DNA of 64,000 bases from an uncultured Clostridia bacterium. Lineage in GTDB: Bacteria; Aerophobota; Aerophobia; Aerophobales; AE-B3A. The stretch spans positions 6,025-70,024 of the forward strand of contig CAZIXA010000009.1 in the NCBI GenBank assembly GCA_964543295.1. The letters are read 5' to 3'. This document shows, one piece after another, positions 9,974-64,000 of this stretch (the first letter of the stretch is position 1; every line of letters starts with the position of its first letter). A program made the position numbers and the translations under genes. A model generated the notes under the pieces. The model saw only the letters and a list, made by a program, of their open reading frames with translations, ran no database searches and was not told the DNA's origin.

Positions 9974-9980
9974 CTTGTTT

Positions 9981-10265: not shown

Positions 10266-10332
10266 TTCCTTTTCTTATTTCGTACCTATTCACCGCAGAG
10301 ATGTCAAAAAGAAGAAAAGGGATCAAAACCTT

Positions 10333-10364
10333 TTGTTGAATGTCAAATGTTGAGACCTGACCCC
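10333..10364. repeat. third copy of the 32-bp GGGGTCAGGTCT repeat
   Basis: Identical to 9942-9973. Confidence 0.8.
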
Positions 10365-10367
10365 AAT

Positions 10368-11096
10368 TCACATCAGGCCTCGGTCTTTCAGGCTAATATA
10401 CTTTTTACCACCAATGATGATGTGGTCGAGTAGGTCGATAGCCAAGGTCTTTCCCACCTCTTGCATCTGTCTGGTTACCTTTAGATCCTCATCACTGGGA
10501 TTGGGATCGCCGGAAGGATGATTGTGAGCGATGATTAAGCCGGCGGCTAGATACTCTATGGCTGGTTGGAATACCTCCCGTGGATGGACTAAATTAGCAG
10601 TGAGGGTACCAATGGAGATAATCTCATCATGGATAATTTTATTTCTTGTATTAAGATATAATCCACGAAACTGTTCCTTTTTCAGTTTTCTCATATCCTC
10701 CAGGTACCGATAGACATCCTCAGGGTTCCTGATGGTGGGCATCTTGCCTGGCTCTTCCTGAAAGAACCTTCTGCCCAGCTCAAAACAGGCCACTACCTGA
10801 CAGGCTTTAACGGGAGGAATGCCTAGAGTTTCGATTAGACGTGCCACATTCTTTTCCTGGGTTATCGCTTTAGAGCCATATTCCTTGATTATACGATGGG
10901 ATAACTCCAGTACAGTCTCTCCTCTATACCCTGTGTTTAAGATAATCGCCGTAAGTTCCGGGGTCTTCAGGACATCGGGGCCGTATTTTATCAGCTTTTC
11001 CCTGGGTCTTTGACAAGCCGGGAGCTCTTTCAACTTGACCCGATAACGATCTGAGCTTCTCATCTGCAGTTCCTTAATATAACTATTCAGCCGCAC
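10368..11096 (-). CDS. radC: RadC (JAB domain) protein
   Basis: RPREKL, VHPREVF, HNHPSGDPNPS..D, LLDHIII. Confidence 0.95.
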   Translation of the reverse strand: MRLNSYIKELQMRSSDRYRVKLKELPACQRPREKLIKYGPDVLKTPELTAIILNTGYRGETVLELSHRIIKEYGSKAITQEKNVARLIETLGIPPVKACQVVACFELGRRFFQEEPGKMPTIRNPEDVYRYLEDMRKLKKEQFRGLYLNTRNKIIHDEIISIGTLTANLVHPREVFQPAIEYLAAGLIIAHNHPSGDPNPSDEDLKVTRQMQEVGKTLAIDLLDHIIIGGKKYISLKDRGLM

Positions 11097-11186
11097 ATTT
11101 ACGCTGATATTTTTCTTTTATGTGTTTAAACCTCTCTTTGTGAATCTGTAGCTAAATAATCACGTCCCCTTTTTACCTTTTTTCCC

Positions 11187-37357: not shown

Positions 37358-38911
37358 TTACTCCCATTCGATGGTGCTGGGAGGCTTAGAACTAATGTCG
37401 TAGACCACCCGGTTTACCCCTTTTACCTCATTAATGATACGGTGAGAAATCCTTTCCAAGAGATCATAAGGAACCCTGGCCCAATCAGCCGTCATCCCAT
37501 CCAGACTGGTGACGATTCGCAAAGCCACAGTATATTCGTAGGTGCGCTCATCCCCCATTACTCCCACACTTTTTATGGGTAGGAGTAAGGCAAATGACTG
37601 CCAGATTTCCGGGAACTTCTCATATTTTTGCATCTCCGCCGTAACTATTGCGTCAGCCTCACGGAGAATTTGGAGCCGCGGTCTGGTAACTTCTCCCATA
37701 ATCCTCACCGCAAGACCCGGGCCCGGGAAAGGCTGTCGATTCAAAATCTTTTCTGGCAACCCCAATTGCTTAGCCAGAATCCTCACCTCATCCTTAAATA
37801 GATCCTTTAAAGGTTCGAGAAGCTTAAAATGAAGATCACTGGGGAGACCTCCCACATTATGATGGCTTTTGATCGTAGCTGATGGCCCACCTTTTGCCGA
37901 GCGACTCTCAATCACATCTGGATATAGAGTGCCTTGAGCGAGAAACTCCACCTTACCCATTTTCCTGGCTTCCTCTCTAAAGACCCCAATAAATTCCTCA
38001 CCAATAACCTTTCTTTTTCTCTCCGGATCAGATATTCCAGCTAATTTGCTCAAGAACCTCTCCCCTGCCTCCACATAATGCAGGTTCAGGTGAAAGTGAC
38101 GAGTAAAGGTATTGATCACCTCCTCTACCTCCCCCTGACGGAGAAGACCATTGTTGACAAAAACACATCCCAATCTGTCTCCAATGGCCCTGTCCACCAA
38201 TACGGCCGTCACTGACGAATCCACCCCTCCACTTAAACCGCAGATAACTTTTTGGTTGCCCACCTTCTTTCTCATCCTCTCCAGCGAATAATCAATGAAG
38301 GAACTCATGGTCCACTGGGGGGAGCATTCGCATATCTTAAAGAGAAAATTCTGAATCATCTTTTTTCCCTGTGGAGTATGGGCAACCTCGGGATGGAATT
38401 GAACTCCATAGAATCTGCGTTTCTTGTCTCTCATACTAGCTACAGGGCAATTTTCGGTACGGGCAATTACCTCGAAGCCGGAAGGAAGTTTGGCTACTCG
38501 ATCCCCATGGCTCATCCAGGCAATCAGAGGAGACTTCAGTCCGTAGAATAGATCTTCATCCTCCCCTATGGTAAGCTCGCTTTTTCCATATTCCCTTTTC
38601 TTAGCCGAAGCAACCTCACCCCCTAAAAGCCAAGCCAGAAGCTGCATGCCATAGCAGATTCCTAAAACAGGGATTCCTAATTCAAGAATCTTTCGATGGG
38701 GAAAGGGAGCTCCTTTTTGGGCCACACTGGCCGGACCACCGGATAAGATGATACCCTTAGGATTTAGGCTGACCAATTCAGAAGGCGTTATATTAAAGGG
38801 AAAAAACTCACAGTAAACTTTGCTTTCCCTCACCCGGCGGGCAATAAGCTGATTGTACTGGGAGCCAAAATCAAGAATGGCTATCATCTCCCCAAAAAGT
38901 TTGTCAGACAT
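37358..38911 (-). CDS. guaA: GMP synthase (glutamine-hydrolysing)
   Basis: [34 protein letters not shown]. Confidence 0.98.
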
Positions 38912-38925
38912 TAACCTACTCCCTG

Positions 38926-39086
38926 AATCATACAATCCCTAAAGGCCCCCCTCCAGGCAGGACCACTCCCTCGGAATTAAGAATCTTTCCGGCACTACTG
39001 GTAACCAGAGCTTCTTCTCCCACCTTTTGCAGAGCTTTCTCTACACTTCTCAAGTTTCCCATTCCATAATCAACGACGGCTATCAT
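38926..39086 (-). pseudogene. hisH: hisH 5' remnant
   Basis: MIAVVDYGMGNLRSVEKAL...VVLPG, then GAFRDCM after a frameshift; remainder missing. Confidence 0.85.
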
Positions 39087-39381
39087 TTTTGCCTTAAGGT
39101 GACAGCCCTATAGCTTAAACCACCATTTGCCAAAATCCTTTATTCATAAACCTTAAATGCGTCTCTTTCTTAGATTATTCTATCATATTTAAGGTTAGGA
39201 GGCAAGTAATTTTTGGTTTTAGGTCACTGATAAATTATTTGGTTAGTCTTCCTCATTTCCGACTTGCAAAGCTTTTATCAATTTTTAATGGAGAAAAGAT
39301 TGATGTTGACCCTTCGGTATGGTTTGATAAACTGGAAAAGAAACATAGCAGGAAAATACAGTAGAAGAACCGCCCAAATTC

Positions 39382-39507
39382 ATCCAACACGAGCTTTGTG
39401 ACTTGGGTATACTTTGCTCAAATCGTCTTCGGCGGCTTCGCCGCTTGGCCTTCGGCACAGCCCTTGCTTCGCTCGGGCCGTCGCAAACCGTGGAACCGTT
39501 ATCAGAA
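39382..39507 (+). other. attC-like recombination site
   Basis: GC-rich branched palindrome ending in GTTATCAGAA, whose exact complement TTCTGATAAC lies 3 bp after the next gene's stop. Confidence 0.6.
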
Positions 39508-44467: not shown

Positions 44468-45142
44468 ATGTTCAAATCTATAATTTTTGATATGGATGGA
44501 GTCATAATTGACAGTGAACCAATCCATTTTAAAGTTGAAAAGAAACTCTTTAAGAATTTAGGTCTAGCCATTTCTGACGAGGAGCATCATTCTTTTGTCG
44601 GTACTAAGAGTAGAGAAACGTGGTTATACATAAAAGACAAATACAAGCTTAATCGGTCACTTGAAGAATTGGTTGAAATGGAAAGAGTCAGCTACATGGA
44701 TTGTCTATTATCGCAGGAAAATATAAAGCCAATACCTGGAGTGACTGAGTTAATTGAAAAATTGTGTAGAAATAATGTAAAACTTGTTGTAGCGTCATCT
44801 GCTTCAATTGAAAACATTGAAACAGTTCTCAAAATGTTTAACTTGGAAAGATTCTTTGAGACAAAAATTAGTGGTGATGAGGTCAACAATGGAAAACCTG
44901 CTCCAGACATTTTTCTTTATGCTGTTAAAATTATAGGTGCCGAGCCCGAAGAATGTATTGTAATAGAAGATTCAAAGAACGGTGTAGATGCGGCTAAGTC
45001 AGCCGGAATGAAATGTATTGGTTTTGAGAATCCAAATTCTGGAAAGCAAGATTTATCTTCTGCAGACATGGTTATAAATAGTTTTTCAGAAATTAATTAT
45101 CAAAAACTACGGCAGATTTATGAACAGTGGCAAAAAGAATAG
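44468..45142 (+). CDS. HAD-IA phosphatase (beta-phosphoglucomutase-like)
   Basis: FDMDGV, ASS, KPAPD, IEDSKNG. Confidence 0.92.
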   Translation: MFKSIIFDMDGVIIDSEPIHFKVEKKLFKNLGLAISDEEHHSFVGTKSRETWLYIKDKYKLNRSLEELVEMERVSYMDCLLSQENIKPIPGVTELIEKLCRNNVKLVVASSASIENIETVLKMFNLERFFETKISGDEVNNGKPAPDIFLYAVKIIGAEPEECIVIEDSKNGVDAAKSAGMKCIGFENPNSGKQDLSSADMVINSFSEINYQKLRQIYEQWQKE

Positions 45143-45250
45143 AACATCAGTGAACTACTAAAAATGTAGTGATAATTGCCAGGGAAGTTGGGTCTGTGCC
45201 AAAAAATACGAGTATTCTTTGTGTTTTTAGGGGGTAAATAAATCTCCATT

Positions 45251-46126
45251 GTGAAGGTGAAAACAATAGGAATGTTGGCAACTCTGGGAGCAAGCATAGC
45301 GTGGGCTCTTGAGCCCATTTTTGCTAAATTGTCTTATGCAAACGCAGATTTTCTTGAAACTTCCACTGTTAGAGCTATATTTGTTGCATTAATTGCATTA
45401 ACTTACGCCTTTATTACCAATAAGGGAAATCTGAAAGTCAATAAAAAACAATTTTCAATACTCGTTTATATTGCCCTAGCGGGAACACTATTTGCTGATT
45501 TAATCTATTTCTTTGCATTAACTAAAGTTGCGGTAATTAATGCTGTTTTAATAGGACATATGCAACCAATTTTTATCGTTTTTATGGGATTTTTTTGTTT
45601 AAAAGAAGACAGACTAACAAAGTTTGATTATGCAGGAATATTTTTTATGATTATTGCGGGTTTGCTGGTTACGACAAAAACCCTAACAAATTTATCCATG
45701 CTGCGATTGGGGAGTGTTTATGATCTGGTGGTGCTGTCTGCAACGATTGCATGGGCAACCACCGGAATAGTAATGAGAAAATATCTCAAGCAAATGAATG
45801 CGGGTGTTGTTACATTTTACAGATTCTTCATCGCTTCAATTGTCTTTGTGATTTACGTGCTCTCAACCTCCTCAGTGCTTTTTTCTAATATTTATCAAAT
45901 CTTGGTTGGAGTTATAGTGGGGGCAGGATATATCCTCTACTATGAGGGTTTGAAGCGCATTAAAGCTGCTCAATCCTCTGCACTTGAGCTTTCGACACCA
46001 TTTTTTGCTACATTATTGGGTTTTTATATTTTAGGAGAATTAGTCACAGTTATGCAAATTTTTGGTATTCTCTTGCTCTTTGTGGGGATTGGTTTTTTAT
46101 TTGTGAGAGAAGAAGTGCATTCTTAA
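45251..46126 (+). CDS. EamA/DMT family transporter
   Basis: About 10 hydrophobic helices in two repeats; QPIF..LKE and TPFFA..LGE. Confidence 0.88.
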   Translation: MKVKTIGMLATLGASIAWALEPIFAKLSYANADFLETSTVRAIFVALIALTYAFITNKGNLKVNKKQFSILVYIALAGTLFADLIYFFALTKVAVINAVLIGHMQPIFIVFMGFFCLKEDRLTKFDYAGIFFMIIAGLLVTTKTLTNLSMLRLGSVYDLVVLSATIAWATTGIVMRKYLKQMNAGVVTFYRFFIASIVFVIYVLSTSSVLFSNIYQILVGVIVGAGYILYYEGLKRIKAAQSSALELSTPFFATLLGFYILGELVTVMQIFGILLLFVGIGFLFVREEVHS

Positions 46127-52494: not shown

Positions 52495-52773
52495 ATGCTA
52501 TACATGACCATTGTTACTTGGGAACCAGACAAAACGGAAGAGTTGATTAAAAGATATCAGCAAGTAGGAGCAAAATTTCCTAAGGGGATGAAAGTGATTA
52601 GCCAGCGGAGTGAGCTCCATGGTGGTCGAATTTTTCAGCTGAGTGAGGTACCTGCGCCTGATCCCAAAATTGTCATTGAAGCCTGCTCACCTTGGTACGA
52701 CCTTTGCAAGATGGAGTGTATTCCTGTCATGGAAACAGAAGAGCTGATGAAACTAATTCCACGTAGGCTTTAA
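52495..52773 (+). CDS. DUF3303-like small protein
   Basis: MLYMTIVTWEP, PKGMKVI, PWYDL..ME.IPVM; AGGAGG RBS. Confidence 0.7.
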   Translation: MLYMTIVTWEPDKTEELIKRYQQVGAKFPKGMKVISQRSELHGGRIFQLSEVPAPDPKIVIEACSPWYDLCKMECIPVMETEELMKLIPRRL

Positions 52774-52802
52774 AAATCATATCCAAATATAAAATTGCCT
52801 CC

Positions 52803-53107
52803 TTGGTATTGGTAGTACTGAATCCGTTGCTCCATACTCTTATGGCAAGGATTCATCCGCCTACTCCCGAGGAATTATTCAATATTTTTGCTAAAGCAAG
52901 GATGATGTTTCCGGAAGTTCCCATTCTTTTGAATTGTGCTTGTCCTGGGGGGAAGTATCGGCTAAAAATAGACAAATATGCTCTGCACGCAGGATTAAAT
53001 GGTATTGCTTATCCTGGAGAAGGGATACTCTCTTATGCAAAAAAAAAATTGGCCTCAAGCCAACTTTCTCTGAGTACTGCTGCTCATTAATATTCGAGGA
53101 ATTTTGA
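52803..53107 (+). pseudogene. radical SAM C-terminal remnant (LipS1-like)
   Basis: PPTPEE..ARMMFP..PILLNCACPGGKYR..ID..A..AG.NGIAYP, then FSEYCCS after an A-run frameshift. Confidence 0.6.
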
Positions 53108-53325: not shown

Positions 53326-53628
53326 TTATGAGAATACCCTCTGATAGCTGGTTATAAAATCAATAAGTCTATCATAATCTACTACCTCAAAAATAGGAGG
53401 TATTTCCTTTAATGCTCGGGCATCCACATCTGCCTTAAGCATGTAAAGAGGTACTCCTTTGGCTTTGAGGTTCTTTACAGATGACCAGAGATTCTCCGGC
53501 CTTTTTTTTGCTATATAAATCCCTTCGTGAATAAAGACAACACCGTCACTGGGTTTAACCCACTTTAATGGCATAAGAGATTCACTAATCACAAATGGTG
53601 ATTCCTTAACAATAAATAGAGTATCCAT
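53326..53628 (-). CDS. dsrH: DsrH/TusB-family sulfur relay protein
   Basis: TLFIVKESP, VVFIHEGIY, ADVDARAL, VVDYD..IDF; last gene of a DsrEFH trio. Confidence 0.8.
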   Translation of the reverse strand: MDTLFIVKESPFVISESLMPLKWVKPSDGVVFIHEGIYIAKKRPENLWSSVKNLKAKGVPLYMLKADVDARALKEIPPIFEVVDYDRLIDFITSYQRVFS

Positions 53629-53655
53629 GTTGCCTCCTTTTAGAAAGTCATAATG

Positions 53656-54971
53656 TCCCTTTCACCAAATTCGGAAACCCGCTTTATTGCAGTATTTTCA
53701 AGTACCTTGTTTTTCCTTTTGCCCTCCTATGTCAAAACCCTTGCTGGGTGAGGGTTTTAAAGACCAATTTTTCAATTTTTACCAAACTTTGTACCCTTTT
53801 GGAGGGGATGGAGGGCAAAAATTTTCCCTGTCACATTTCGTGAAAACCTACCAAATTTTCAACCTAGATTTTACGAGGTTCCTTTTTTGATCTTCCTGAG
53901 GAAATTTTGATTTTTTACCTCCTTTCTCTCCTGTGGTATCATTTTTTAAGAGAAAATCTTTCGCCTTTCACAAAATTGGAAGATGGAGGATGAAATTGAG
54001 ACAAAAACTTCTATTCCATCCAGAGGCCTTATCCAAAGATCGATTAAAAAAGTTTGAACTGTTTTTCGACACTTTAGATCTTAGAGCTCCACAAAAACCA
54101 AGATCAAAAGGTAGACGCCCTACAGATAAGATGAGCATTGTCCGAGCCTTGATCTTCAAGAACCTGCGAGGACTTCCCATGTTAACTGATCTTGCGGTAG
54201 AGCTTCTTGAACGACCTTCCTTGGCCCACATTTTAGGATTTGAGCCTGGTTTAGTTCCACCGGTAGAAAGATTCTCCCATTTTCTACGAGTTGAGAATAA
54301 CAATTTCCTGCAAGGAATAAGAGAGGATCTCGTTAAACGTCTTGTATCCTTGGGTCTTTCCCCTATGGCAGCTGTTGGAGACTCTGAACTTGATGCATCT
54401 CCCATTCTTGAGTACATCTTGAATACCATGAATGCAAAACCTGTAATTGCCAAAAATCCACGCGGTGGTGCTCCCTCTACTACCAAACTCTCATCTAAGG
54501 GTGTTCCCATTTGCCTTGCAGGTTTTGAGATGGCATCCAGAGGAAGATTCTATGATAGAAAGCAAAAGAGGTGGCGTCATAAGTTCATCTGTCCTATCCG
54601 CGCATCAAAGAAGTTCTCTAAAAAGCAACCTTATTGTCCTTGGTTCCACCCTAAGTTTACAGAAAGTACTGGCTGCTACAGGTACATTAGAATAGACGTA
54701 GATGATACAGTCAGACACAGAATCGATTATAGGTCAGAGGAATTTAAGAGAATCTACAACCTGCGTACAAGCTCTGAGAGGGTATTCTCCCGTCTTTTAT
54801 CTGTGCTAATGCAGGAACCATTCGTAAAGGGACTAACCTCAGCAGCCAACAGTTGTACCCTTGCTCACATTACTGTCCTTGCCGTTGCTTACTTTGCCAC
54901 AGTTGTGAAAGAGCAAGACAAAATACGATTCGTCAAAAGTTTCATTCAAAATTTCTAATTTTGTGAAGCCC
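53656..54971 (+). mobile_element. insertion sequence with 15-bp flanking direct repeats
   Basis: TAGAAAGTCATAATG at 53641-53655 and 54972-54986; imperfect inverted ends TTCACCAAATTCGGAAA / TTTCTAATTTTGTGAA. Confidence 0.85.
53933..54958 (+). pseudogene. DDE transposase (IS4/IS5/IS1182-like), apparently internally deleted
   Basis: GRRP..K.SIVRALIFK, AVGDS..D, YNLRTSSERVFSRL; first catalytic Asp segment appears absent. Confidence 0.7.
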
Positions 54972-55333
54972 TAGAAAGTCATAATGACATCAGATGATCC
55001 GATAAGATCCGTGACTTCATCGTCTGTAAGAAGATCTACTTTTCTAATTTCACTCTCACTTATGGCTCTTTTCTCCAGGGACGGTTTATGAGCGAATAGC
55101 TTGATATCAAAATCTTCAAGATCCTGGAAAGCCAACTCAAAGCTTTGCATCTCTAAACCGGAAGGGTTCTGCCCTTCAAGAAGAAAATAGACCCCATCAT
55201 TAACCAACAAGATTGAACTTTCAACATCCTCTCCGCTTAACCCCACGGCTGCCCTTTTTGCCTCATAGGTACAGATACCACAGAGAGTGCCGTAGGGAGA
55301 AGATTTAACTATCAATAAGGTTTTCTTGGCCAT
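54971..55333 (-). CDS. dsrF: DsrF/TusC-family protein
   Basis: SSPYG, LVNDGVY.L..GQNP, SLEKR, DVIMTF. Confidence 0.8.
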   Translation of the reverse strand: MAKKTLLIVKSSPYGTLCGICTYEAKRAAVGLSGEDVESSILLVNDGVYFLLEGQNPSGLEMQSFELAFQDLEDFDIKLFAHKPSLEKRAISESEIRKVDLLTDDEVTDLIGSSDVIMTF

Positions 55334-55347
55334 TTATCCCTCCTTTT

Positions 55348-55698
55348 TTAGAAACCGAGAGAGATGTATCTTTTGGAACTTTTTACCAGTTCACCAAATT
55401 TTGGTAGTCCACCCCTGGTGACTCCAGATACCATCATCTTCTTTTTTACACCTCTGTACTGCATACAGACACCGCAACCTACTACCTCTACCCCAAGTGA
55501 GGCAAGCTCTTCCATCATCTTTCCTATATCCCGATCGCCAGAGGGTTTTATGTTGGCGTTAATGTTGTAAGAACCATCCATGTAGAGAAAAAGAGAGCAA
55601 GAGTGTCCCTTTTTAATCGCCGCCTTTATAAGATTGTAGGCAGTATCAATATTCTCAAAGGTGTAAGGTCCTGTTTGCACCATGAAACCAATCTTCAT
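55348..55698 (-). CDS. dsrE: DsrE/TusD-family sulfurtransferase
   Basis: TGPY, LFLYMDG, CGVCMQYRG. Confidence 0.85.
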   Translation of the reverse strand: MKIGFMVQTGPYTFENIDTAYNLIKAAIKKGHSCSLFLYMDGSYNINANIKPSGDRDIGKMMEELASLGVEVVGCGVCMQYRGVKKKMMVSGVTRGGLPKFGELVKSSKRYISLGF

Positions 55699-55999
55699 CT
55701 TTTCCTCCTTGTTTTCATGGGTATCGTCAAAAATTCTTTCCTTTCTTTATTTGCACCAAAATCTTTCATGGTTTGTTTGACACCACCTTACAAAAACCTT
55801 TAAACTCCCTTTTGGAGGATTAGTAGCCCATAGGCCTCTTCAAAGAGCAAGGTATCCCTAAGTTTCTCGAGATTGGCGGGCTACGGTCTTAGAACCTACC
55901 ACGGTGCTCACTCCTCCAACTTTGGTTGTACCTTGGGCCACTGCATCACTTCCTCACTTCACCCTCTGTCAGATCTTCAGCGCAGACACTGCACCTCAA

Positions 56000-57046
56000 T
56001 TAGCCGCATCCACCGCCCGAGGACTCTGGTGTCGTTTCTGTCGGTGAGGAGCTTACAAAGGGATAATCCATGCTGTTGACCGGGTCAAACCTATAAGGTG
56101 CCACCTCCTCGTTTTTGGTCCATCCGGTCATTCCCCAATGAAGGTTGACCGCATTGTAACCGAGAACGTTCAAAATAGCCGTAGCCTGACTGGCAGTGCG
56201 GCCGGTGTAGCAGTAGAGTACAATTTTCCTATCCGGAGGGAGTTTTTTCAAATTGGACTTCTTGGCTATCTCCCGCCAGGGTATGTTAATGGCCCCGGGG
56301 ATATGGCCCTTGGCATAGTCCTCTGGGTTACGCACACTGACGATCAGGGGATCGTTGGCCGGGTCCTCATCAATCAGCAGCTCGGACAGCTCCTTGGCTG
56401 AGATATCTGGGTGTTCAGTGCTGGTATAGAGATAGCAGGCCGCCCGGATAGTTTCTCTTTTTAGGGATGAGGAGGTGTTATCCACCGTGGGGAAGGAGTA
56501 AGTTTCAGTGGGTTCGTTGACTTTAGTCTCAAGCGGATAATCCATAGGGGTTTTCTCCGGGTCAAAACGGTAGGGAGCTACCTCGGTATCTTTGGTCCAT
56601 CCGGTCATCCCCCACTTGAGGTTGACGGCATCAAAGCCAGCTAAGTTAAGAAGAGCTACAACCCGGCTTCCAGTATGACCAGTGTAGCAGTAGACCACGA
56701 TTTGTCTGTCTTTGGGAAGCTTGCCCAGGTTCTCAGACTTAAACACCTCGGCCATAGGTATATTAACTGCTCCGGGGATATGGCCCTTGGCATAGATAGC
56801 AGGTGCCCTGATGCTGAGTATGAAGGGGTCGTTGTCCGGGTTACCATCAAGCTTATTGGACATCACATCTTTTGAAGAGATATTGGCTGGTTTGCCAGCG
56901 CTCAGGTAGGTATTTGCCGCATCAGCAAGGACATCAAACTCTGATGCCTGCAAACCTATAGCCAATACCGGTATAAGCACCAGCAAGACAATCCCGCATA
57001 GGAGCAGGATACCCCGCTTAGTTCTTCCTTCCTTTAGTCCTAACAT
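56000..57046 (-). CDS. exported tandem-domain rhodanese with C-terminal GGGCG tail
   Basis: N-terminal hydrophobic signal; two YAKGHIPGA.NIP repeats and two CYTG active loops. Confidence 0.9.
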   Translation of the reverse strand: MLGLKEGRTKRGILLLCGIVLLVLIPVLAIGLQASEFDVLADAANTYLSAGKPANISSKDVMSNKLDGNPDNDPFILSIRAPAIYAKGHIPGAVNIPMAEVFKSENLGKLPKDRQIVVYCYTGHTGSRVVALLNLAGFDAVNLKWGMTGWTKDTEVAPYRFDPEKTPMDYPLETKVNEPTETYSFPTVDNTSSSLKRETIRAACYLYTSTEHPDISAKELSELLIDEDPANDPLIVSVRNPEDYAKGHIPGAINIPWREIAKKSNLKKLPPDRKIVLYCYTGRTASQATAILNVLGYNAVNLHWGMTGWTKNEEVAPYRFDPVNSMDYPFVSSSPTETTPESSGGGCG

Positions 57047-57107
57047 TTGAACCCTCCTTTAGTTTGGAATTTTTGACAATCTCCACATACACACTTCATA
57101 CCTTTAA

Positions 57108-58133
57108 TTATCTCATAAGCAGCAGATACGCCGCTAACCAGCATCCCAGGATGATGAAGCTACCACCAAGTAGGGAACTCAGTGCCAGTTGAGGTACTCC
57201 ACTTAAAATGTGACTTATGTTACATCCCATCTGGCACACAGCTCCAAAGCCCATCAAGCATCCACCAAAGAAGCACTGAATTAGTACTCTCGGTGCTGGT
57301 GCCCGAAGTTTAAACTCACCAGCCAACAGAGCAGCAACACAGGCGCCCACAATGGTAGCCAAAAGTTGCATAGATAACCAGGAGAGGAAGTTCTGACCCA
57401 TAATCAAGGTTTTCACAGTTGTAAGATATCCTCCAGTGATAGCCAGGGGATAGTTTCGTCCAGCCTGTGATGAGGCATAGAAGGCAATTATCCCTATGAT
57501 ACCCATTACAATTCCTGTTGCCGTCCACCCCCAGCCCTTTTTAAAAATCCTGGCACCCAGTGACACAACTTCCTCTTTTTTCTCCTTAGTGCTGGGAGCG
57601 CCAAAGACAGCCCAGAGAATGAGGGCCACACCAGCAATCCCAAAGGCAAAGGTATAGTGCGGGAGATGAAGCACATTAGCAACTGTGAGATTTACTCCTC
57701 CAGGTTGAGTTATTCTGGTGTTCTGGAAAAAGCCCACTACTGGCCTAAGAATACCCATAGAGCTCATCAGTCCCACAAGTGTCAAACCCGCCACTGCGGA
57801 CATGGCACCCACCATACCTTCTCCAAAGCGGTAGGTAATTCCACTGGCACATCCCCCGGCCACCACCATACCCATGCCAAAGATAAAACCACCAACCATA
57901 TTGGCGCCCCACATGAAGGGGAGGGGGTTTAGATCTATCACCCCGGCCAGGTTCAGGACTTCAAACCCTACCATCTCAACCACTATCGCCACCCCCACTG
58001 CTTTCAGGAGCGTATAATCCCTCATTAGAATGATGTCTCTGAAGGCGGAGTTCATGCAGAACCTTCCTCTCTGTAGAGCAAAGCCAAAGGCAAATCCTAT
58101 AGGAAGTCCGGTGAATACAAGAGGATTCATCAT
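57108..58133 (-). CDS. yeeE: YeeE/YedE thiosulfate/sulfur transporter
   Basis: RGRFC, GGCASG, MGCNI: the three conserved Cys motifs; multi-TM. Confidence 0.92.
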   Translation of the reverse strand: MMNPLVFTGLPIGFAFGFALQRGRFCMNSAFRDIILMRDYTLLKAVGVAIVVEMVGFEVLNLAGVIDLNPLPFMWGANMVGGFIFGMGMVVAGGCASGITYRFGEGMVGAMSAVAGLTLVGLMSSMGILRPVVGFFQNTRITQPGGVNLTVANVLHLPHYTFAFGIAGVALILWAVFGAPSTKEKKEEVVSLGARIFKKGWGWTATGIVMGIIGIIAFYASSQAGRNYPLAITGGYLTTVKTLIMGQNFLSWLSMQLLATIVGACVAALLAGEFKLRAPAPRVLIQCFFGGCLMGFGAVCQMGCNISHILSGVPQLALSSLLGGSFIILGCWLAAYLLLMR

Positions 58134-58378
58134 TCACCCCCTTTAACTTCTATTAGAATCCTGTGCTCAGGACCCTCAATTTTTTCTACACTCAACACCT
58201 TGTGCCCCTCTTTTTCCGCGGTCCTGGGGATGCGTTCTACTGAAAGGGGATAGTCAGTTAAAACCTCAAGAATTTGTCCTTTTTCCATTTTCTTCAACGT
58301 TTTCTTGGTTTTTACATCCGGATAGGGACAGATTTCTCCTTTTGTATCAAGCGTTTTGTCAGGTCTAATCTCTGCCAT
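58130..58378 (-). CDS. tusA: TusA/YeeD sulfurtransferase
   Basis: LDTKGEICPYP, LEVLTD. Confidence 0.92.
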   Translation of the reverse strand: MAEIRPDKTLDTKGEICPYPDVKTKKTLKKMEKGQILEVLTDYPLSVERIPRTAEKEGHKVLSVEKIEGPEHRILIEVKGGE

Positions 58379-58499
58379 TTCTCTCCTCCTTTTTTTTTCT
58401 TAGTATTGTCAAAAATTCTTGAGGTTATTTAAGAACCTCTATCCTTGTATTTTTCATTCATTTCAATCCACCAAAATTCCAAACAACCTACTTAACCAG

Positions 58500-58610
58500 G
58501 TAATTTTGTATCTATTCAAGGACATGGTTCATTCTTTTGTCGAAAGTTTCCAGACGAGAAAATAATCTTTCAACACTTTTTCTTGGAAACTTCCTTTATC
58601 CCAAGCTGGA
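58500..58610 (-). pseudogene. short transposase remnant
   Basis: RKSVERLFSRL resembles the DDE C-terminal motif. Confidence 0.35.
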
Positions 58611-58774
58611 TTGACCTGCCTGTTTTTGACCTCCGTCCTGGCCTTAATCTCCAGCTTCTTATCTTAAAACATATCTATCCTGTATTTTATTATAATCGTT
58701 TTTTTTTGCAAGTGCGGCTGAAATTAAAAACGTAAGTTAGCTACTTCCTTTTCTATGAGCTGTTTTTTGAGGTA

Positions 58775-59800
58775 CTAAGCAGTCGAGTCTGGGTCTATTT
58801 TAAAATCTTTATTCTCTGAGAAAATAAGTTCTGACCAATCATCGATTGGAAGATCCAGTCCTTCAAGCTGAGCAGGAGATGACCCTCTGCGTTTTCCTCT
58901 GGGGAATTTTCTGAAGTTATGCCTTAAGGTGAAAAGATCAAAGTGAGCTTGTGCTCCCCCTCGAATTTGGAACTGTTTCATTACCTTGTACTGAGGCTTA
59001 AAGAGGCTAAATACAATTTCAGCCGCATTGTTGGTATTATCTATTCCCCTTTCGGGGAGTTTCTTGTAGAGGAAAAGATCCTTTGAATTTTTTTCGATAA
59101 ACCCCAGCATGGGTTGTGTCCATTCTCTTTTTTTCCCTGGTGTAAAAGAGCTTAAGTTCTCTTTTTATCTGACCTATCTCAGAGTTTATCTTGCCTATAT
59201 TGTCCTCTTCAAATAGCAAGCCGAATCTTTTCTTTATCCTTACCATATATTCTGAAAAGAACTTGTCCTTCTTGGCCTCAACTGGAAGATCCCTTATGAT
59301 CCTTGCAATACCTCCTCTCCCATGAGTTGTGCAAAGCTGGTGCAGGCAAGCTTTAAAATAGCCTGCAACTGTTCTGTAAGTAGGCAGAAGATCGGTTATG
59401 AGAAGGTTAAGGTTGAATCCTTCCTGTCTGTATCCTAAGAAGCTTTCTATACTGGCCTCATCTATAGCGCAATGGGAGATACCTGCTAAGAATCTTACCT
59501 TTAAGTTAACCTCCCTTGCAAGAGAGGATGCCCTCATAAGCTCGGTGTAGATGAACTCTAAGCTTACATCTACATACAGGATCTTTCCGATACAATCCTG
59601 GAGGGCTCTTAGAGATGCTTTCCCATCAGTTCGAAGTATCCCAATGGCTCTTTTTACCTCCCATTTTATGTGGGTGTGGATGCCCCCTTTTTTTCTATAT
59701 GGAGGCTTTTCTTTTGTAAGCTGCCGTCTTTTGCTTCATCAGCGATGGGTAAGAGTACAATTTCTATCATTAAGTTCTGGTTGAGCAATTTGAGGCAAAG
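58775..59800 (-). mobile_element. fragmented DDE transposase
   Basis: AIDE, LITDLLPTY, HQLCTTH, TNNAAE..FS, HNFR..G.SPAQL across frameshifted ORFs. Confidence 0.7.
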
Positions 59801-60189
59801 TATTGGTTAAAAACAGGTACCCATCTATATTGTCACTTTTAACATCCTCTAATTCCTCTTAATATCTATTTTTTCGAATGATTAAAGCATTACTAGCTTG
59901 AAAGCCAGCAGTTTTCGGGAAACTGGAGTTATTTAAGACAATTGCGCACCCAAAAGGCAACCTATGACATTTTCAAAGAACGATAGAATTGCGTAGATCA
60001 GTACCAAAAAGCATTTTAAATTATTTAGGGATTTCCGTTAATAATCTTATTTTTGGTTTTCATATCTTTTCATAACTTTTTCACATTACCTTTTTCTTCT
60101 CTTTCAACAGTAATCATCTGCTTTCACCTCTTTTTATCACCCCTTCCTGTAGATTAATGACTTTACCTATTATAATCTACCAAAAAGAT

Positions 60190-60621
60190 TCATTTTTTTT
60201 CTTTTTTTACATGTTTTTTTATCTCTCCTTTTAGCCAATCATGGGATGCTTCTCCCTTCATCAAATTGGAAAGTTCTGAGGTATCTTTTATCTTCATTTT
60301 GAACACCCATCCCTCACCATAAGGGTCAGAGTTTATAATGGTGGGATCATCATCCACCTCTTCATTAACAGCAGTAACCTGGCCAGATAAGGGAGCGTAT
60401 AGCTTGCCAAGCCATTTTCCTGTCTCTATGGTTCCCACTCTCTCGTCCTGTTTTACCTCATCACCTTCCTCAGGCATCTCAATATAACTTATCTCACCGC
60501 CGAGTTTCTGGGTAAAATCAGTTAATCCCACAATAGCTTCCTCCCCTTCTACTCTCACCCATACATGCTGCTTATGGTAATATAAATCATCTGGAACCTC
60601 ATAACCTTCTACAACTGCCAT
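60190..60621 (-). CDS. GcvH/LbpA-type lipoyl carrier protein
   Basis: LYY..H.W, VGLTD, IETGKW lipoylation site, INSDPYGEGW. Confidence 0.9.
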   Translation of the reverse strand: MAVVEGYEVPDDLYYHKQHVWVRVEGEEAIVGLTDFTQKLGGEISYIEMPEEGDEVKQDERVGTIETGKWLGKLYAPLSGQVTAVNEEVDDDPTIINSDPYGEGWVFKMKIKDTSELSNLMKGEASHDWLKGEIKKHVKKEKK

Positions 60622-60636
60622 CTTTTCTCCTCCTTT

Positions 60637-61470
60637 TTAGTACTCCCGGGGAAGCTCTTTTAATTGAGCGTAGCTGAATATGGGTCCATCTTTACATACG
60701 TAGAATCTTCCAATGTTACAGCAGCTACACTTCCCTGTACCGCATTTCATCCTCCTCCCTAAGGATAGATAGACCCTCTCGGGAGGAAATCTAAGTTTGT
60801 CCAGGCTAATAAGGGTATACTTTATCATTATTGGTGGGCCACAGGCTACAGCGTAGGTATTCTCCGAAGTAGTTACCTTCTCCTCCACAATCTTAGGTAC
60901 AACTCCAACCAATCCTTTCCAGTTTTCGTCCCCTCTATCTACAGTTAAATAAACCCTTAGATCATCGCTTTTTTCCCATTCTCTAAATTCTTCCCTATAT
61001 AAAAGCATTCCCGGGGTTCTTGCTCCATATACAAGGGTAATTTCTTTGAAATCACCTCTTTTAGCAAGGAGATACTTAGTTAATGCTCTTAGGGTAGTGA
61101 AGACGAATCCACCCCCTATAATAAGGACATTTTTATCTTTGAAAATATTTATCGGATAATAATTACCCAGAGGACCTCTTATCACTAATTCATTACCCTG
61201 TTCCAGGTGATGCAGGGCCTCGGTGACAACACCAGCTTTGTTCACCGTAAATCTCAAGAAGCCCTTTTCTGTCGGTGATGAAGCAATGCCAAAGGGTGCC
61301 TCCCCTTTACCAAGAATAGAAATCTCACAGAACTGTCCTGGCATAAAGTTAAAATCTTTTTCATCTTTCTCATTAAGGAAAATGAGATCCACTGTATTTA
61401 ACATTCTGTCTCCACTTTCTAAAAATGTTCTCTTTACCTTCACTGGCATGGGAAAATGGGGACTTTGCAC
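60637..61470 (-). CDS. FAD/NAD-binding 2Fe-2S subunit (FlxA/AsrB/HydG family)
   Basis: PGQF, GEAPFGIAS, RGPLGN, CGPPIM, MKCG.GKC..C..G..YVCKDGP. Confidence 0.9.
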   Translation of the reverse strand: MQSPHFPMPVKVKRTFLESGDRMLNTVDLIFLNEKDEKDFNFMPGQFCEISILGKGEAPFGIASSPTEKGFLRFTVNKAGVVTEALHHLEQGNELVIRGPLGNYYPINIFKDKNVLIIGGGFVFTTLRALTKYLLAKRGDFKEITLVYGARTPGMLLYREEFREWEKSDDLRVYLTVDRGDENWKGLVGVVPKIVEEKVTTSENTYAVACGPPIMIKYTLISLDKLRFPPERVYLSLGRRMKCGTGKCSCCNIGRFYVCKDGPIFSYAQLKELPREY

Positions 61471-61482
61471 TACAAAGCTCCT

Positions 61483-62488
61483 CTATTTTAACTCGGTTAT
61501 TTCCTTCAACACCCTTCTAACATCTATATTGACCGGACAGTTTATGACACATCTTCCACAGCCAACACAAGCCGGCTCCTTGTAGTTTTCCACAAAATAG
61601 TTAAATTTGTGCATTATTCTTTGCCTCATCCTTTCCTTGCCTGTTGGCCTTGGATTATGCCCCGATGCCTCTAAGGTGAAAAGAGAAAACATGCAGGAAT
61701 CCCAGTTCCTGACTCTTCCTTGAGAATCTACTGCCTCATCCACAATATCAAAACAATGACATGTAGGGCAAAGATAGGCACATACACCACATCTCAGGCA
61801 TTTCTCCGATAAGCCATCCCAGAAGGTAGTTTCAAACATTTTATCGAGTTTTTCCTTCGCGCCTTTTATTTCAACTTTTGATTTAATCTTTTTGACCGCT
61901 TTATCCTTAATCTCTTCTGCCAATTTTAACTGCTCATCTGTTGCCCCAGTAAAATCCTCGGTTAAAATCTGCTCACCCTTTTCAGTTAGTACATCAACAA
62001 CATACTCCTCCCCTATATCAACAAGTAGAAGATCCATGCCATCTCTTGAAAAAGGTTCTATACTAAAGGAGGTACAGAAACAACTACTGAGAGGCAAGTT
62101 GCATCTCAGACCAATAATAATGGTGTCTTCCCTTTTGTTTGTATAATAGACATCTTTGTAATCAGGGGCCTCAAAGACATTATCTAAAAGTGAGATTGCC
62201 TTTGCATCACAGGGCACAGGGCCTGATACCAAATAAAATTCTCTTTTTTTCTACCTTTTCTGTTGACTCTACTTTTCCGTTCCTGTATTTAAACATCACC
62301 TCTGATTGGGCAAAAAATATCTCCTTAGGTGATTTTTTAGAATTTTGATAATCCAGCTTTATCTCTTCTGGTTTAGTTGTTGCTCTAAAACAGTCAATTC
62401 CATCAACCTCTACTGGCGCAAAAACAGTATAATCCTTAATTAGTCTTTGAATAAACTTCTCTATTTTCTTTTTAGTAATTTTCCTCAT
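61483..62488 (-). pseudogene. 4Fe-4S subunit (FlxB/AsrA/HydB family) split by a 7-bp duplication
   Basis: SPKEIFF, FGIRPC|DA, CLRCGVC...CPTCHCF, CVGCGRC...CP; ACAGGGC doubled at 62209-62222. Confidence 0.85.
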
Positions 62489-62540
62489 AATCTTCCTTTA
62501 ATTTTTTTGGGCCAAGACCTTTCACCAGAATCACAAAGAT

Positions 62541-63596
62541 TTATTTTTCTATCTTCATAGCCTTAAGAAGATCCTCAGGTCTTACTCCAGGAGACTGAGT
62601 CTGATTTTTCTCATAAATTTCCTCTATTCTGGGAGTAAGGGTTTTCTTCTCTCTTTTACTACCAACTAATCCCTTTTCCAATTTGACAAGTCCCTCTTTG
62701 GGATAAAAAGTAAAATCACCACAAATATCAATGTCATTTATTTTCTCTCTTTCTACCTCTTGAGCTGTTTTTATCAGCCCTCCTCTAGCTTTATGCATCC
62801 CATATAGAATCTCAACCCCCTCTTTTATCTTTACCCCCTTTGGGATTTTCATTGTTTTCTTAAAAAGAAACTGAGGGGAGGTGAGATATTTTTCTACCTC
62901 CACCATTTTTCTTCTTATCCTGCTGTCTAAAACCGTGGGTTCTAAAGGACCCAGCAGTTTTTCGAATTTTTCTATTAGGACATTTCTAATTTCATTTCGT
63001 GGCGGAAAGATGCCCAATTCTTTCCTCATGGTGGTTAAATTTTCTTCCATTTTCTTGTGTACCTTGTCTCTGAATTTTTCGTCGGGAACCTTAATTACCT
63101 TTGCCATGGTATCATAATCAAAATCTAAGATAATACTCCCTACAAAAACCATAGAATTGGAAATGTTACTTCCTCCTTCTCCGGCGATTTTCTTTCTATC
63201 CTCGGTAACAATATCATTTACATATCTGAAGTTAGTTTTTATTCCAAATTCACCGTAAGTCTCTATTGGTGGTTGAGAAAAATCCTCATAAAGCTGAGAT
63301 ATTGTTGGAGGAAGATGGGGATTATCTTTGTTCAGTATGACATGGTAAAATATCTGGTCTTTATCCAGTAAAACAGCCCCTCCCCCAACCTCTCTTCTTA
63401 TAATGGGCATATTGATTCTTCTGCAGTATTCCAGATCCACCTCCTCCCTAGCGTCCTCGAAGTATCCTATGCTCAGATATTGGGTTCGGGGAGAGACAAT
63501 TATAAGGGCTTCAATCCCCATCCTGGCAAGGGTGTGAAAGAGAACCATGGCATCCTGCCAACGAACCTTACCCAAATTAAATAAATACATCCCCAT
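62541..63596 (-). CDS. lipoate-protein ligase (LplAB / sLpl-like)
   Basis: RREVGGGAV, ND...KKIAG, C-terminal KARGGLI..GDF domain. Confidence 0.9.
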   Translation of the reverse strand: MGMYLFNLGKVRWQDAMVLFHTLARMGIEALIIVSPRTQYLSIGYFEDAREEVDLEYCRRINMPIIRREVGGGAVLLDKDQIFYHVILNKDNPHLPPTISQLYEDFSQPPIETYGEFGIKTNFRYVNDIVTEDRKKIAGEGGSNISNSMVFVGSIILDFDYDTMAKVIKVPDEKFRDKVHKKMEENLTTMRKELGIFPPRNEIRNVLIEKFEKLLGPLEPTVLDSRIRRKMVEVEKYLTSPQFLFKKTMKIPKGVKIKEGVEILYGMHKARGGLIKTAQEVEREKINDIDICGDFTFYPKEGLVKLEKGLVGSKREKKTLTPRIEEIYEKNQTQSPGVRPEDLLKAMKIEK

Positions 63597-63604
63597 AACC
63601 CTCC

Positions 63605-64000
63605 TTATTTAATAAAATCCTACCTATCATCCAGCTCAAATGTAGCCAGAGGTAGCCGGGCATCAGGGTCTAATCCTGTCTCAAAATTAAAAAATTCTTT
63701 TACATCCTTATTAATCTTTTTAGTTAAAAAAGCGCAGGTTTATCTCCATAGGACAAGCTCTCTCACATGATCCGCAGTCAACACATCTCCCGGTTTGATG
63801 GTAAGCTCTGATAATATGCCAAAAGGCAATATCTGTCAAATCCAAGCTTTTTTCTATCCACTTAGGGAAGGAGGAATCAACCAAACATTCCTCGCAATAG
63901 CACATCGGGCAGGCTTGTCTACAGGCATAACATCTAATACATTTACTTATCTCGTTAGTAAAATACTCCCATCTTTCCTCTGCGGATTTTTTCTCATATT
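63605..64000 (-). pseudogene. 4Fe-4S subunit (FlxC-like), 3' part with frameshift and internal stop
   Basis: CIRCYACRQACPMCYC..C, GRCVDCGSCERACP; frameshift at A-run 63726-63731 and TAG at 63620-63622; runs off the window end. Confidence 0.75.

Follow-up and report, generated by a model that had tools for sequence, protein, structure and literature searches.

What is the function of an operon that joins genes for sulfur import and relay to Flx-type redox subunits, a lipoyl carrier protein and a lipoate-protein ligase? The question is raised by a string of minus-strand genes at the end of the window, i.e. the whole 64,000-nt stretch of DNA that was analysed, corresponding to positions 6025-70024 of contig C9 in a 2.6 Mb Aerophobota genome (G000; 82 contigs, 91% complete). 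The host is a sediment organism and probably an anaerobe. Genes were called from an open reading frame (ORF) listing together with Pfam and NCBIfam profile scans, and neighbours in other genomes were labelled by BLAST against our own reference set, with spot checks in Pfam. All genes named in the initial annotation, which had viewed the string as a candidate new lipoate-dependent sulfur system, were recovered at their places on the minus strand. A promoter and terminator scan gave counts near the shuffled-sequence level. Based on comparisons to relatives, the window holds a copy, eroded by insertion sequences (IS), of an operon that is conserved in some Aerophobota, and we tentatively propose that the intact operon serves persulfide reduction through protein-bound lipoate.

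The intact form is represented by L166, a metagenome contig of 14,882 nt that was found by a metagenome scan with the window carrier. Its 19 genes share one strand, are free of IS and never more than 286 nt apart, and follow the order HdrA (partial)-MvhD-like-HdrA (1011 aa)-MvhD-FlxC-ligase-FlxB-FlxA-GcvH, followed by TusA-DsrE2-DsrE-DsrF-DsrH-TusA-YeeE-DsrE-DsrF-DsrH. The identity to the window proteins amounts to 83% for the ligase, 80% for FlxB (intact in L166, 337 aa), 85% for FlxA and 88% for GcvH, and to 94% for the second TusA, 79% for YeeE and 86%, 88% and 74% for the last DsrE, DsrF and DsrH, respectively. As L166 joins both halves without an IS, the combination is not an IS accident, and the concern that the two halves had been brought together only by the IS in the window is thereby removed. 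MvhD, the equivalent of FlxD, and HdrA are located directly upstream of flxC, as had been predicted; the search for hdrABC, flxD or mvhD beyond position 64000 was fruitless in C9 itself, which ends in an IS, and it was this relative that supplied MvhD and HdrA. Four linked modules make up the intact operon, namely (a) a sulfur module for uptake and relay, composed of YeeE, two TusA, DsrE2 and two sets of DsrEFH, (b) a GcvH-like lipoyl carrier, here denoted KW type, (c) its own ligase and (d) Flx(ABC) headed by HdrA and MvhD. Relative to L166, the window copy is without the hdrA/mvhD head and the first TusA-DsrE2-DsrEFH set, i.e. five sulfur-relay genes, and has in addition an exported tandem rhodanese that is not found in L166.

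The linkage of a sulfur module to a dedicated carrier and ligase and to Flx-type subunits, as put forward in the initial annotation, holds in L166 and extends further, to a second cluster in the same genome and to WOR-3/Stahlbacteria. The second cluster, on contig C14, is intact and on one strand, and reads HdrA-MvhD-HdrA-MvhD-FlxC-FlxB-FlxA-HdrC-HdrB-MvhG-HdrA/MvhD-MvhA-protease-HdrB in its first part and DsrE2-TusA-DsrE-DsrF-DsrH-GcvH-ligase-OsmC-LipS2-LipS1 in its second. The Flx and GcvH proteins of the window and of C14 are 52-59% identical and the ligases just 26%, and the window copy is thus an old paralogue of C14 rather than a recent duplicate. We note that the two hdrB copies of C14 form a 946-nt direct repeat of 99.9% identity (38461-39406 and 44502-45447) that brackets mvhG-hdrA/mvhD-mvhA-protease, which represents either a recent duplication or an assembly loop. 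A further cluster of the genome, on C24, has the order Rex-HdrC-HdrB-(HdrA fragment/NuoE)-x-NuoF-HdrA-MvhD-FlxCBA and no carrier. Within the genus, genome G006 holds HdrA-MvhD-FlxCBA-GcvH-ligase-LipS2-LipS1. Four WOR-3/Stahlbacteria genomes were searched and the carrier surroundings were examined in three (G031, G032 and G034), all of which display TusA-DsrE-DsrF-DsrH-GcvH, the same order as on C14, with a KW-type carrier 55-57% identical to that of the window; in G031, FlxA-like and HdrB genes are located just upstream. No ligase is present at the locus in these genomes, where a window-type ligase is encoded elsewhere.

The window carrier (60190..60621, minus strand) displays the motif E-T-G-K-W-L-G-K, has 0 cysteines and an isoelectric point of 4.8, and shares with Hdr-linked relatives a lipoyl motif followed by W-[LIV]-G-K, an N-terminal PD(E/D)LYYH block and a C-terminal W..GEI.K extension. 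Close homologues at NCBI are labelled 'Candidatus Aerophobetes bacterium'. The protein passes the models for GcvH (PF01597, 140.8 bits; NF002270, 144.8 against a cut-off of 117; TIGR00527, 133.4 against 115.85), and a PDB sequence search returned 13 matches (E up to 1e-5), all GcvH and none an LbpA entry, so this search cannot separate the two families. For a comparison, 107 GcvH-family proteins were assembled from three sources, namely 80 genome loci retrieved through a KW-type alignment, 20 loci from metagenomes and 14 earlier rows; proteins outside 110-175 aa and loci without a called GcvH ORF, of which there were 6 among the 80 genome loci, were omitted. The way of retrieval introduces a bias into this sample, and many rows are kin. 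Within the fetched flanks, 25 of the 29 KW-type carriers are near Hdr, Flx or CCG genes and 0 of 29 near gcvT/P, while the remaining GcvH-family proteins are near gcvT/P in 36 of 78 cases and near hdrCBA in 1 of 78. In a careful 50-row tree, 26 rows form a KW side that is split from the 24 rows of ordinary GcvH (support 100/100), and the window carrier falls into a 10-row KW set (98/96). A grouping of the carrier with glycine-cleavage proteins, which the initial annotation had named as the outcome that would speak against it, is therefore not what the gene neighbourhoods and the split of the tree indicate, with the reservation of a topology test (p 0.131) that is taken up below.

The ligase tells a similar story. 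It is a divergent two-domain protein (62541..63596, minus strand; LplA-B_cat and Lip_prot_lig_C) of what we call the Lpl_w-type clade, which comprises 23 rows of a 37-row tree with a support of 100. Members of this clade are near Hdr, Flx or CCG genes in 17 of 23 cases and near gcvT/P in 0 of 23, and are separate both from a 5-row gcvTP-linked clade, holding the ligase of contig C42, and from a LipS-linked clade, holding that of C14; here too, the association with glycine-cleavage proteins that had been considered is not observed. The distribution in the phylum is patchy, with window-type ligases in 4 of 30 other genomes (58-62% identity) and in 0 of 4 same-genus genomes (77-88% completeness). 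The glycine-cleavage genes proper are on C42, as a canonical gcvT-H-PA-PB set with its own, third ligase, in agreement with the earlier statement that gcvP and gcvT are not in the window. On C42, a 1259-aa frame (8594-12373) upstream of gcvH-PA-PB holds both a region of the serine hydroxymethyltransferase type (residues 116-503) and one of the GcvT type (residues 847-1214), with a transketolase-like gene in between. A fourth GcvH paralogue (128 aa, not KW type) adjoins a 551-aa MetF-like methylenetetrahydrofolate reductase fusion on C29 (2862-4976), a pairing reminiscent of the gcvH/lpdA genes of acetogen Wood-Ljungdahl clusters.

The redox subunits are encoded by flxA-, flxB- and flxC-like genes, all on the minus strand. 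The FlxA-like flavoprotein (60637..61470; AsrB/HydG-like) combines FAD_binding_6, NAD_binding_1 and a 2Fe-2S DHODB-type domain (DHODB_Fe-S_bind), the FlxB-like protein (61483..62488) is AsrA/ShyB/HydB-like with Fer4_22, and the 3' part of the flxC-like Fe-S gene (63720..64000) encodes an FrhB_C-like region, a weak match, and two 4Fe-4S motifs; the remainder extends to about window position 64552 (C9 position 70576), followed by an IS transposase and the end of the contig. The names FlxB-like and FlxC-like were given on the basis of these domain matches. The first part of an assignment of these subunits as 'Flx/Asr-type' is in keeping with the Flx-type linkage conserved in the relatives, while the Asr-type alternative was rejected since no siroheme subunit (NIR_SIR) is found in the genome; the AsrB and AsrA models reach 187.9 and 130.6 bits against cut-offs of 288.6 and 323.15, respectively.

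In the sulfur half, again entirely on the minus strand, a TusA/YeeD-like sulfur carrier (58130..58378) with a C-P-Y-P active-site motif overlaps by 4 nt with a YeeE/TsuA-like sulfur (thiosulfate) transporter (57108..58133), followed by the tandem rhodanese (56000..57046), an exported or anchored protein with an N-terminal signal-like segment, the DsrE/TusD-like subunit with Cys75 and Cys78 (55348..55698), the DsrF/TusC-like subunit (54971..55333) and, beyond an IS, the DsrH/TusB-like subunit (53326..53628). The scores with family models stay below the cut-offs: TsuA (NF052577), the best NCBIfam match of the transporter, scores 283 against a cut-off of 400, the TusA-like protein reaches 29.2 with TsuB/YeeD (NF041048; cut-off 147.5) and 78.2 with YedF (NF008242; cut-off 79), and DsrE scores 42.2 with the TusD/DsrE models (cut-off 89.25). 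The arrangement TusA-YeeE-DsrE-DsrF-DsrH matches the published yeeE-tusA-dsrEFH ('YTD', DsrEFH type II) synteny, which according to the parts of PMC13293266 consulted occurs in 985 genomes, 73.9% of them with reductive dsrAB.

In species-representative genomes, the proteins closest to YeeE, TusA and the rhodanese (55-75% identity) are encoded by metagenome-assembled genomes (MAGs) of Dehalococcoidales and other Chloroflexota, where the sulfur module is also found among HdrA-, MvhD- and FrhB-like genes; other Aerophobota YeeE proteins are only 31-41% identical to that of the window, and no close relative of the window DsrE was found in species-representative genomes, the best (41%) being from a Promethearchaeota MAG. 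The GC content is 0.51 for the rhodanese gene (0.57 at third codon positions) and 0.49 for yeeE, compared to 0.37-0.42 for most neighbours. The high GC content of the rhodanese gene and its absence from L166 suggest a recent addition. A recent transfer of the whole sulfur half from Chloroflexota was considered and softened, as TusA-YeeE of L166 are at ordinary GC and only the rhodanese and yeeE genes stand out here. The rhodanese ends in G-G-x-C-G, as do the four aligned Dehalococcoidales proteins (L043, L044, L047 and L055; 5 of 5 with the window). This glycine-rich, one-cysteine tail recalls the sulfur-carrying C terminus of SoxY, and by analogy may act as a swinging persulfide arm feeding YeeE.

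Related strings were detected elsewhere. In the same-order Aerophobota genome G024 (C16:735-5133), YeeE-Rhd-TusA-DsrE-DsrF-DsrH is followed by a 469-aa lipoamide-dehydrogenase-like class I disulfide reductase, judging by the gene string a possible, simpler link from NAD(P)H to persulfide without Flx/Hdr. In the Aerophobota genome G015 (C173) and the Dehalococcoidales (Chloroflexota) loci L046 and L047, and hence in both phyla, the order DsrE2-TusA-MvhD-HdrA-like-HdrA-like-(two FrhB-like)-MvhD-TusA-Rhd-YeeE recurs with no lipoyl carrier nearby. As to downstream enzymes, the statement that dsrAB/dsrC and sox genes are not in the window can be widened: no DsrC, NIR_SIR (DsrAB/AsrC), AprA or SoxY match is present in the 91%-complete genome, and SoxB was seen below cut-off only. 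A reading of the relay as tRNA thiolation (TusBCD-TusE) was set aside, as no member of the DsrC/TusE family was found. The sole ATP-sulfurylase (Sat-like) match of the genome (C3:54100-54759) has two in-frame TGA codons and adjoins a transposase-like match (C3:55312-56322; 23% identical to the transposase of the IS at the contig end), and possibly adds a further pseudogene to this IS-rich genome.

The window copy of the operon is partly pseudogenised. A 7-nt tandem duplication (62208-62221) splits flxB into two ORFs, and in flxC the reading frame is shifted at an A7 run. The IS between dsrF and dsrH (53656..54971, plus strand; transposase ORF 53933-54958, weak DUF772 match) is flanked by a perfect 15-nt target duplication (53641-53655 and 54972-54986) that repeats the last codons at the 3' end of dsrF, and hence represents a simple insertion into a once-contiguous dsrF-dsrH junction. 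Of the two IS initially noted, this one is a clean insertion, while the other is a degenerate remnant (about 58435..59927, strand not assigned) whose transposase gene survives as frameshifted minus-strand fragments (58775-59537). This remnant has no significant end repeats, the sole candidate being an 11-nt direct repeat (58424-58434 and 59928-59938), of which we roughly estimate about 0.7 to be expected by chance, and it occupies the place of TusA-DsrE2-DsrE-DsrF-DsrH in L166. A third IS (DDE_Tnp_1_4) terminates C9 2.2 kb past the window, so the sequence upstream of flxC cannot be read there. Next to the operon, the LipS1-like remnant is confirmed as a plus-strand lipoyl synthase stump (52767..53090) covering residues 206-299 of 319, with 57% identity to the C14 LipS1; LipS2 is not in the window, and intact LipS2 and LipS1 are part of the C14 paralogue. 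The damage is also present in other data. Contigs of X3, a third sample of the same study, are identical to the window sequence (0 differences) over the flxB duplication and at either junction of the first IS. X4, a 90-99% similar strain from a different study, carries this IS at the same dsrH-dsrF position, its transposase gene being shortened by an internal deletion of 291 nt (window 54589-54881), along with the rhodanese, yeeE and gcvH genes. The data sets X1 and X2 are possibly the source of the window DNA and were not counted as independent. The agreement of X3 and X4 argues that the damage is not an artefact of a single assembly.

The explanation that survives best for the window copy itself, and towards which we lean slightly, is that this genome retains no more than a relic of the operon: flxC, flxB and the lost hdrA/mvhD, which make up the redox half, would be dead, and activity would be left at most in the TusA-YeeE-Rhd-DsrEF part. 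Beyond the two frameshifts, the three IS elements or remnants and the LipS1 stump, this is supported by the presence of the same sequence in X3 and of the IS in X4, and by the finding that no orthologue of about 80% identity to the L166 hdrA/mvhD head is present elsewhere in the genome, the best matches (53-78%) being in the C14 cluster. On the other hand, the poly-A frameshift is possibly a sequencing error or slipped over in expression, a missing head could be unassembled in a genome that is 91% complete, and the ligase, flxA and gcvH genes have kept their open frames, with 83-88% identity to L166, suggesting that constraint still acts or did so until recently. Probably, the redox half of the window copy is no longer functional and the intact C14 cluster carries the function.

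For the intact operon, our preferred reading, held with slightly less than even confidence and drawn from gene content and arrangement, is that a lipoyl dithiol, recycled by Flx/Hdr, serves to reduce the sulfane sulfur that is imported. Sulfane sulfur of thiosulfate or polysulfide would be picked up outside the cell, in the window strain perhaps with the help of the exported rhodanese through its C-terminal cysteine tail. YeeE would then import the sulfur onto TusA, and DsrE2 and DsrEFH would relay it as a protein persulfide. With no DsrC as receiver, the dihydrolipoyl arm of the carrier would attack the persulfide, yielding sulfide and the lipoyl disulfide, which would be re-reduced with NAD(P)H by Flx/HdrA/MvhD; on C14, HdrBC and H2 via Mvh could also feed in. 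The outcome would be an electron sink for a fermenter. Gene content, conserved arrangement, separate branching of carrier and ligase and the damage of the window copy are observations; we infer the direction of electron flow, the direct reaction between persulfide and lipoyl group and the identity of the subunit that reduces the lipoyl disulfide. The reductive direction is in keeping with the finding that no sulfite-handling enzyme was detected in the genome (no AprA, no NIR_SIR and a Sat-like gene with TGA codons), and the usual acceptor of a DsrEFH relay is likewise absent (no DsrC and no DsrAB/AsrC match). A connection to NAD(P)H is indicated by the FAD, NAD and 2Fe-2S domains of FlxA, as well as by the Rex gene heading the C24 Flx-Hdr cluster. 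Rhodanese can catalyse the reduction of the sulfane sulfur of thiosulfate by dihydrolipoate.

Several observations weigh against persulfide reduction through the carrier. The lipoyl couple, at about -0.29 V, is a poor high-potential acceptor for NADH-driven bifurcation. HdrB and HdrC, the subunits from which a reaction with a disulfide would be expected, are not seen on C9 or in L166, which begins inside hdrA. The frameshifts in flxB and flxC, the separation of dsrH by the IS and the loss of one relay set render the function of the window copy doubtful. Most KW-type carriers are found with lactate dehydrogenase-CCG, fumarate reductase-Hdr or membrane cytochrome-HdrD modules and no sulfur genes, and the carrier is hence not sulfur-specific. 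The placement of the carrier is also less firm than the tree support implies: in an approximately unbiased (AU) test on the careful tree, moving the pair of window and L166 carriers to the side of ordinary GcvH was not rejected (p 0.131), a constraint that is also satisfied if the pair is the first branch on the KW side, and when the 107-row quick tree was used (p 0.774), the score of the constrained tree was even the better one, which signifies that the quick search was poor. The short carrier alignment alone thus leaves the placement unsettled. Another AU test, by which a grouping of the 36 gcvTP-linked rows with the window was rejected (p 2.45e-9), was set aside as confounded, since the gcvTP-linked rows do not form a clade of their own. 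Finally, Plum-Jensen et al. 2026 (PMC13293266), in the parts consulted, read yeeE-tusA-dsrEFH clusters as oxidative.

An unlikely alternative is that two separate units are involved, with YeeE-TusA-(Rhd)-DsrEFH providing sulfur for biosynthesis (cysteine, Fe-S clusters, thio-cofactors, LipS1/S2) and Flx-HdrA-MvhD together with the carrier forming an unrelated NAD(P)H/ferredoxin loop. YeeE/TsuA and a TusA-like protein are annotated as a thiosulfate uptake pair, TsuA being the best NCBIfam match here at 283 bits, and as no assimilatory sulfite reductase was found in the genome, imported sulfane sulfur would be useful. A separation is also consistent with the 286-nt gap between gcvH and the first tusA in L166, with the occurrence of TusA, DsrE or YeeE within 7 kb in 0 of 8 KW-type loci among the 80 genome loci, and with the position of the C14 relay genes directly beside carrier, ligase and LipS2/LipS1. 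However, TusA-DsrE-DsrF-DsrH-GcvH is found in this order in two phyla, directly next to HdrB and FlxA-like genes (C14 and G031), L166 has two full relay sets and DsrE2 co-directional with the redox genes, which is heavy for cofactor supply, and the G024 string ends in a disulfide reductase of the lipoamide-dehydrogenase type.

We regard as rather improbable an oxidative or disproportionating, sHdr-like operation, in which relayed sulfane sulfur would be converted to sulfite. The carrier would take up the electrons, and Flx/HdrA would deliver them to NAD(P)+ or ferredoxin, with a transfer to H+ by Mvh as a further option on C14. Carrier, ligase, LipS1/S2, OsmC, TusA and DsrE-type proteins, as on C14, equal the accessory set of shdr-lbpA clusters in the published descriptions consulted, yeeE-tusA-dsrEFH has been argued to mark sulfur oxidation (PMC13293266, in part), and the presence of KW-type carriers beside electron-donor modules such as lactate dehydrogenase-CCG fusions makes it plausible that the carrier can be reduced by a substrate module. 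Against this stand the conventional nature of the Hdr genes, associated with MvhD or Mvh and with no sHdr-type set found, the lack of the two LbpA cysteines in the carrier, the lack of a detected route for sulfite in this genome, where neither NIR_SIR nor AprA is matched and the Sat-like gene is broken, and the absence of a DsrAB match, to be compared to DsrAB in 73.9% of the published type II clusters (PMC13293266, as consulted). That an ordinary glycine-cleavage H protein and a lipoate salvage ligase lie here by chance is highly improbable, even though the carrier passes NF002270 and TIGR00527, all 13 PDB matches are GcvH and the AU test leaves room for a position next to ordinary GcvH, as a complete gcvT-H-PA-PB set with its own ligase is present on C42, none of the 29 KW-type carriers is near gcvT/P, the tree split is 100/100 and the ligase clade is apart from gcvTP-linked ligases.

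The wider distribution of the carrier provides a context for the proposed reductive role. In the Aerophobota genomes G013, G028 and G029 and several metagenome contigs, orthologues of carrier and ligase are part of GntR-malic enzyme-fumarase-GcvH-ligase-HdrCBA-FrdBA-like-HdrA/GltD-like-MvhD strings, and on the metagenome contig L173 Mvh hydrogenase genes are located beside such a fumarase-GcvH-ligase string. In Desulfobacterota, WOR-3 and Thermoplasmata MAGs, KW-type carriers adjoin LarA and a D-lactate-dehydrogenase/Fe-S/CCG fusion, LutAB-like proteins, GlcD-HdrD pairs or multihaem cytochrome/NarI-HdrD modules, often with a window-type ligase present; the best 120 matches of the Desulfobacterota-type carrier are almost all from uncultured organisms. 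In Desulfarculaceae and WOR-3 MAGs (L078 and L085), the genes after a KW-type GcvH encode the lactate racemase LarA and a protein of 833-839 aa in which an FAD-linked oxidase, a 4Fe-4S dicluster and a CCG domain are fused, an arrangement that suggests lactate oxidation via the lipoyl carrier. The KW-type carrier thus looks like a general partner of CCG-domain enzymes, sulfur being one of several modules. From these neighbourhoods it appears possible, if doubtful, that the carrier with its own ligase acts as the dithiol/disulfide partner of conventional Hdr/CCG enzymes in anaerobes without coenzyme M (CoM), coenzyme B (CoB) and DsrC, i.e. as a 'bacterial heterodisulfide', with interchangeable substrate modules that would comprise the persulfide relay (window operon, C14 and WOR-3/Stahlbacteria), lactate dehydrogenase-CCG, soluble fumarate reductase and membrane cytochrome/NarI-HdrD.

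If correct, the Aerophobota operon would be an NAD(P)H/H2:persulfide oxidoreductase working through protein-bound lipoate. The locus and its intact relatives offer a concrete candidate for the disulfide substrate of Hdr, Flx-Hdr and HdrD-like enzymes in non-methanogenic anaerobes without DsrC, and they suggest a use for it in sediment-dwelling fermenters without DsrAB, Apr and Sox, where NAD(P)H or H2 would be coupled through it to the sulfane sulfur that is imported. Hidden sulfide production or sulfur-dependent redox balancing could then be ascribed to lineages now scored as plain fermenters, thousands of 'glycine cleavage system H' genes in sediment metagenomes would be misnamed, and yeeE-tusA-dsrEFH would not be a simple marker of DsrAB-based sulfur oxidation.

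Among known systems, the sHdr-LbpA pathway is the one whose signature had been recognised in the initial annotation. The likeness to sHdr-LbpA-sLpl(AB)-LipS1/S2, in the sources consulted, consists in a GcvH-like carrier and its own ligase encoded with Hdr-type genes, TusA, DsrE-type and rhodanese proteins, and in the LipS1/LipS2 and OsmC genes accompanying the C14 paralogue. According to the sections consulted, LbpA combines a lipoyl lysine with two cysteines that are conserved near its N- and C-terminal ends (Cao et al. 2018, PMC6067878), and sHdr systems comprise type I, shdrC1B1AHC2B2, and type II, sHdrB3 with EtfAB/EMO (Tanabe et al. 2023, PMC10332631; Tanabe et al. 2024, PMC11094781). The carrier of the window is set apart by that description, with 0 cysteines and an acidic isoelectric point (0-2 non-conserved cysteines in its relatives), and neither a shdrC1B1AHC2B2 nor a sHdrB3/Etf set is found in the genome, where CCG/HdrB matches occur at three genes, two near-identical on C14 and one on C24, all in conventional HdrCB/long HdrA/MvhD contexts. 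The Hdr genes of L166 are HdrA2-like with MvhD. The sHdr/LbpA signature therefore does not hold for this locus, which differs also in the combination of a long HdrA and MvhD with Flx, and with Mvh hydrogenase on C14, in a window ligase that belongs to a different clade from the LipS-linked one, and in a host without DsrAB, Apr or Sox matches and a direction that is likely reductive.

The YTD clusters share the YeeE-like transporter, TusA and the three-gene DsrE/F/H set. In the account consulted (PMC13293266), they are mostly accompanied by reductive DsrAB, whereas the window genome is without DsrAB/DsrC matches and its cluster is joined to Flx/HdrA and the lipoyl carrier; the part of the supplement consulted makes no mention of Aerophobota, WOR-3 or Chloroflexota.

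The redox half, in turn, resembles the FlxABCD-HdrABC system of Desulfovibrio and other anaerobes. This system was reportedly described by Ramos et al. in 2015. Common to both are a FlxA-like FAD/NAD/2Fe-2S flavoprotein, FlxB/FlxC-like Fe-S subunits, an MvhD-like protein and HdrA in one string, while the substrate proposed there (PMC6470260, as far as consulted) is DsrC, which was not found in the window genome. Here, a lipoate ligase is inserted between flxC and flxB and a lipoyl carrier follows flxA, and HdrBC, not seen on L166, are present in the C14 and C24 paralogues, the latter being headed by a Rex regulator, a further likeness to Flx-Hdr. In methanogens, MvhADG-HdrABC operates together with a thiol:fumarate reductase (TfrAB), and Hdr-linked soluble fumarate reductase clusters have been proposed for bacteria. 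The fumarase-GcvH-ligase-HdrCBA-FrdBA-like strings of other Aerophobota are similar to this arrangement, and L173 adds Mvh; however, a disulfide other than CoM-S-S-CoB is needed, for which the lipoyl carrier is a candidate, and the window operon has a sulfur module instead of the fumarate module.

The closest precedent for such a role is from Culexarchaeia, for which Kohtz et al. 2022 (PMC9723716, in part) report GcvH beside HdrB and suggest the GcvH lipoyl disulfide as the disulfide for HdrB or a bifurcating Hdr without CoM/CoB. In the sections consulted, this is a one-paragraph suggestion on an archaeal membrane hydrogenase cluster, with no ligase, sulfur relay, Flx or analysis of a carrier clade. 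In our literature search, no paper was found that ties FlxABCD to lipoamide, or HdrD to glycine cleavage and a lipoyl group, and the literature retrieved on heterodisulfide reductase together with lipoate-protein ligase and GcvH all concerns sHdr or sHdr-bearing organisms. In conclusion, the claim of a new system needs to be narrowed: the sulfur half corresponds to the published YTD cluster (PMC13293266, in part) and the idea of GcvH as a partner of Hdr has been voiced before (PMC9723716, in part).

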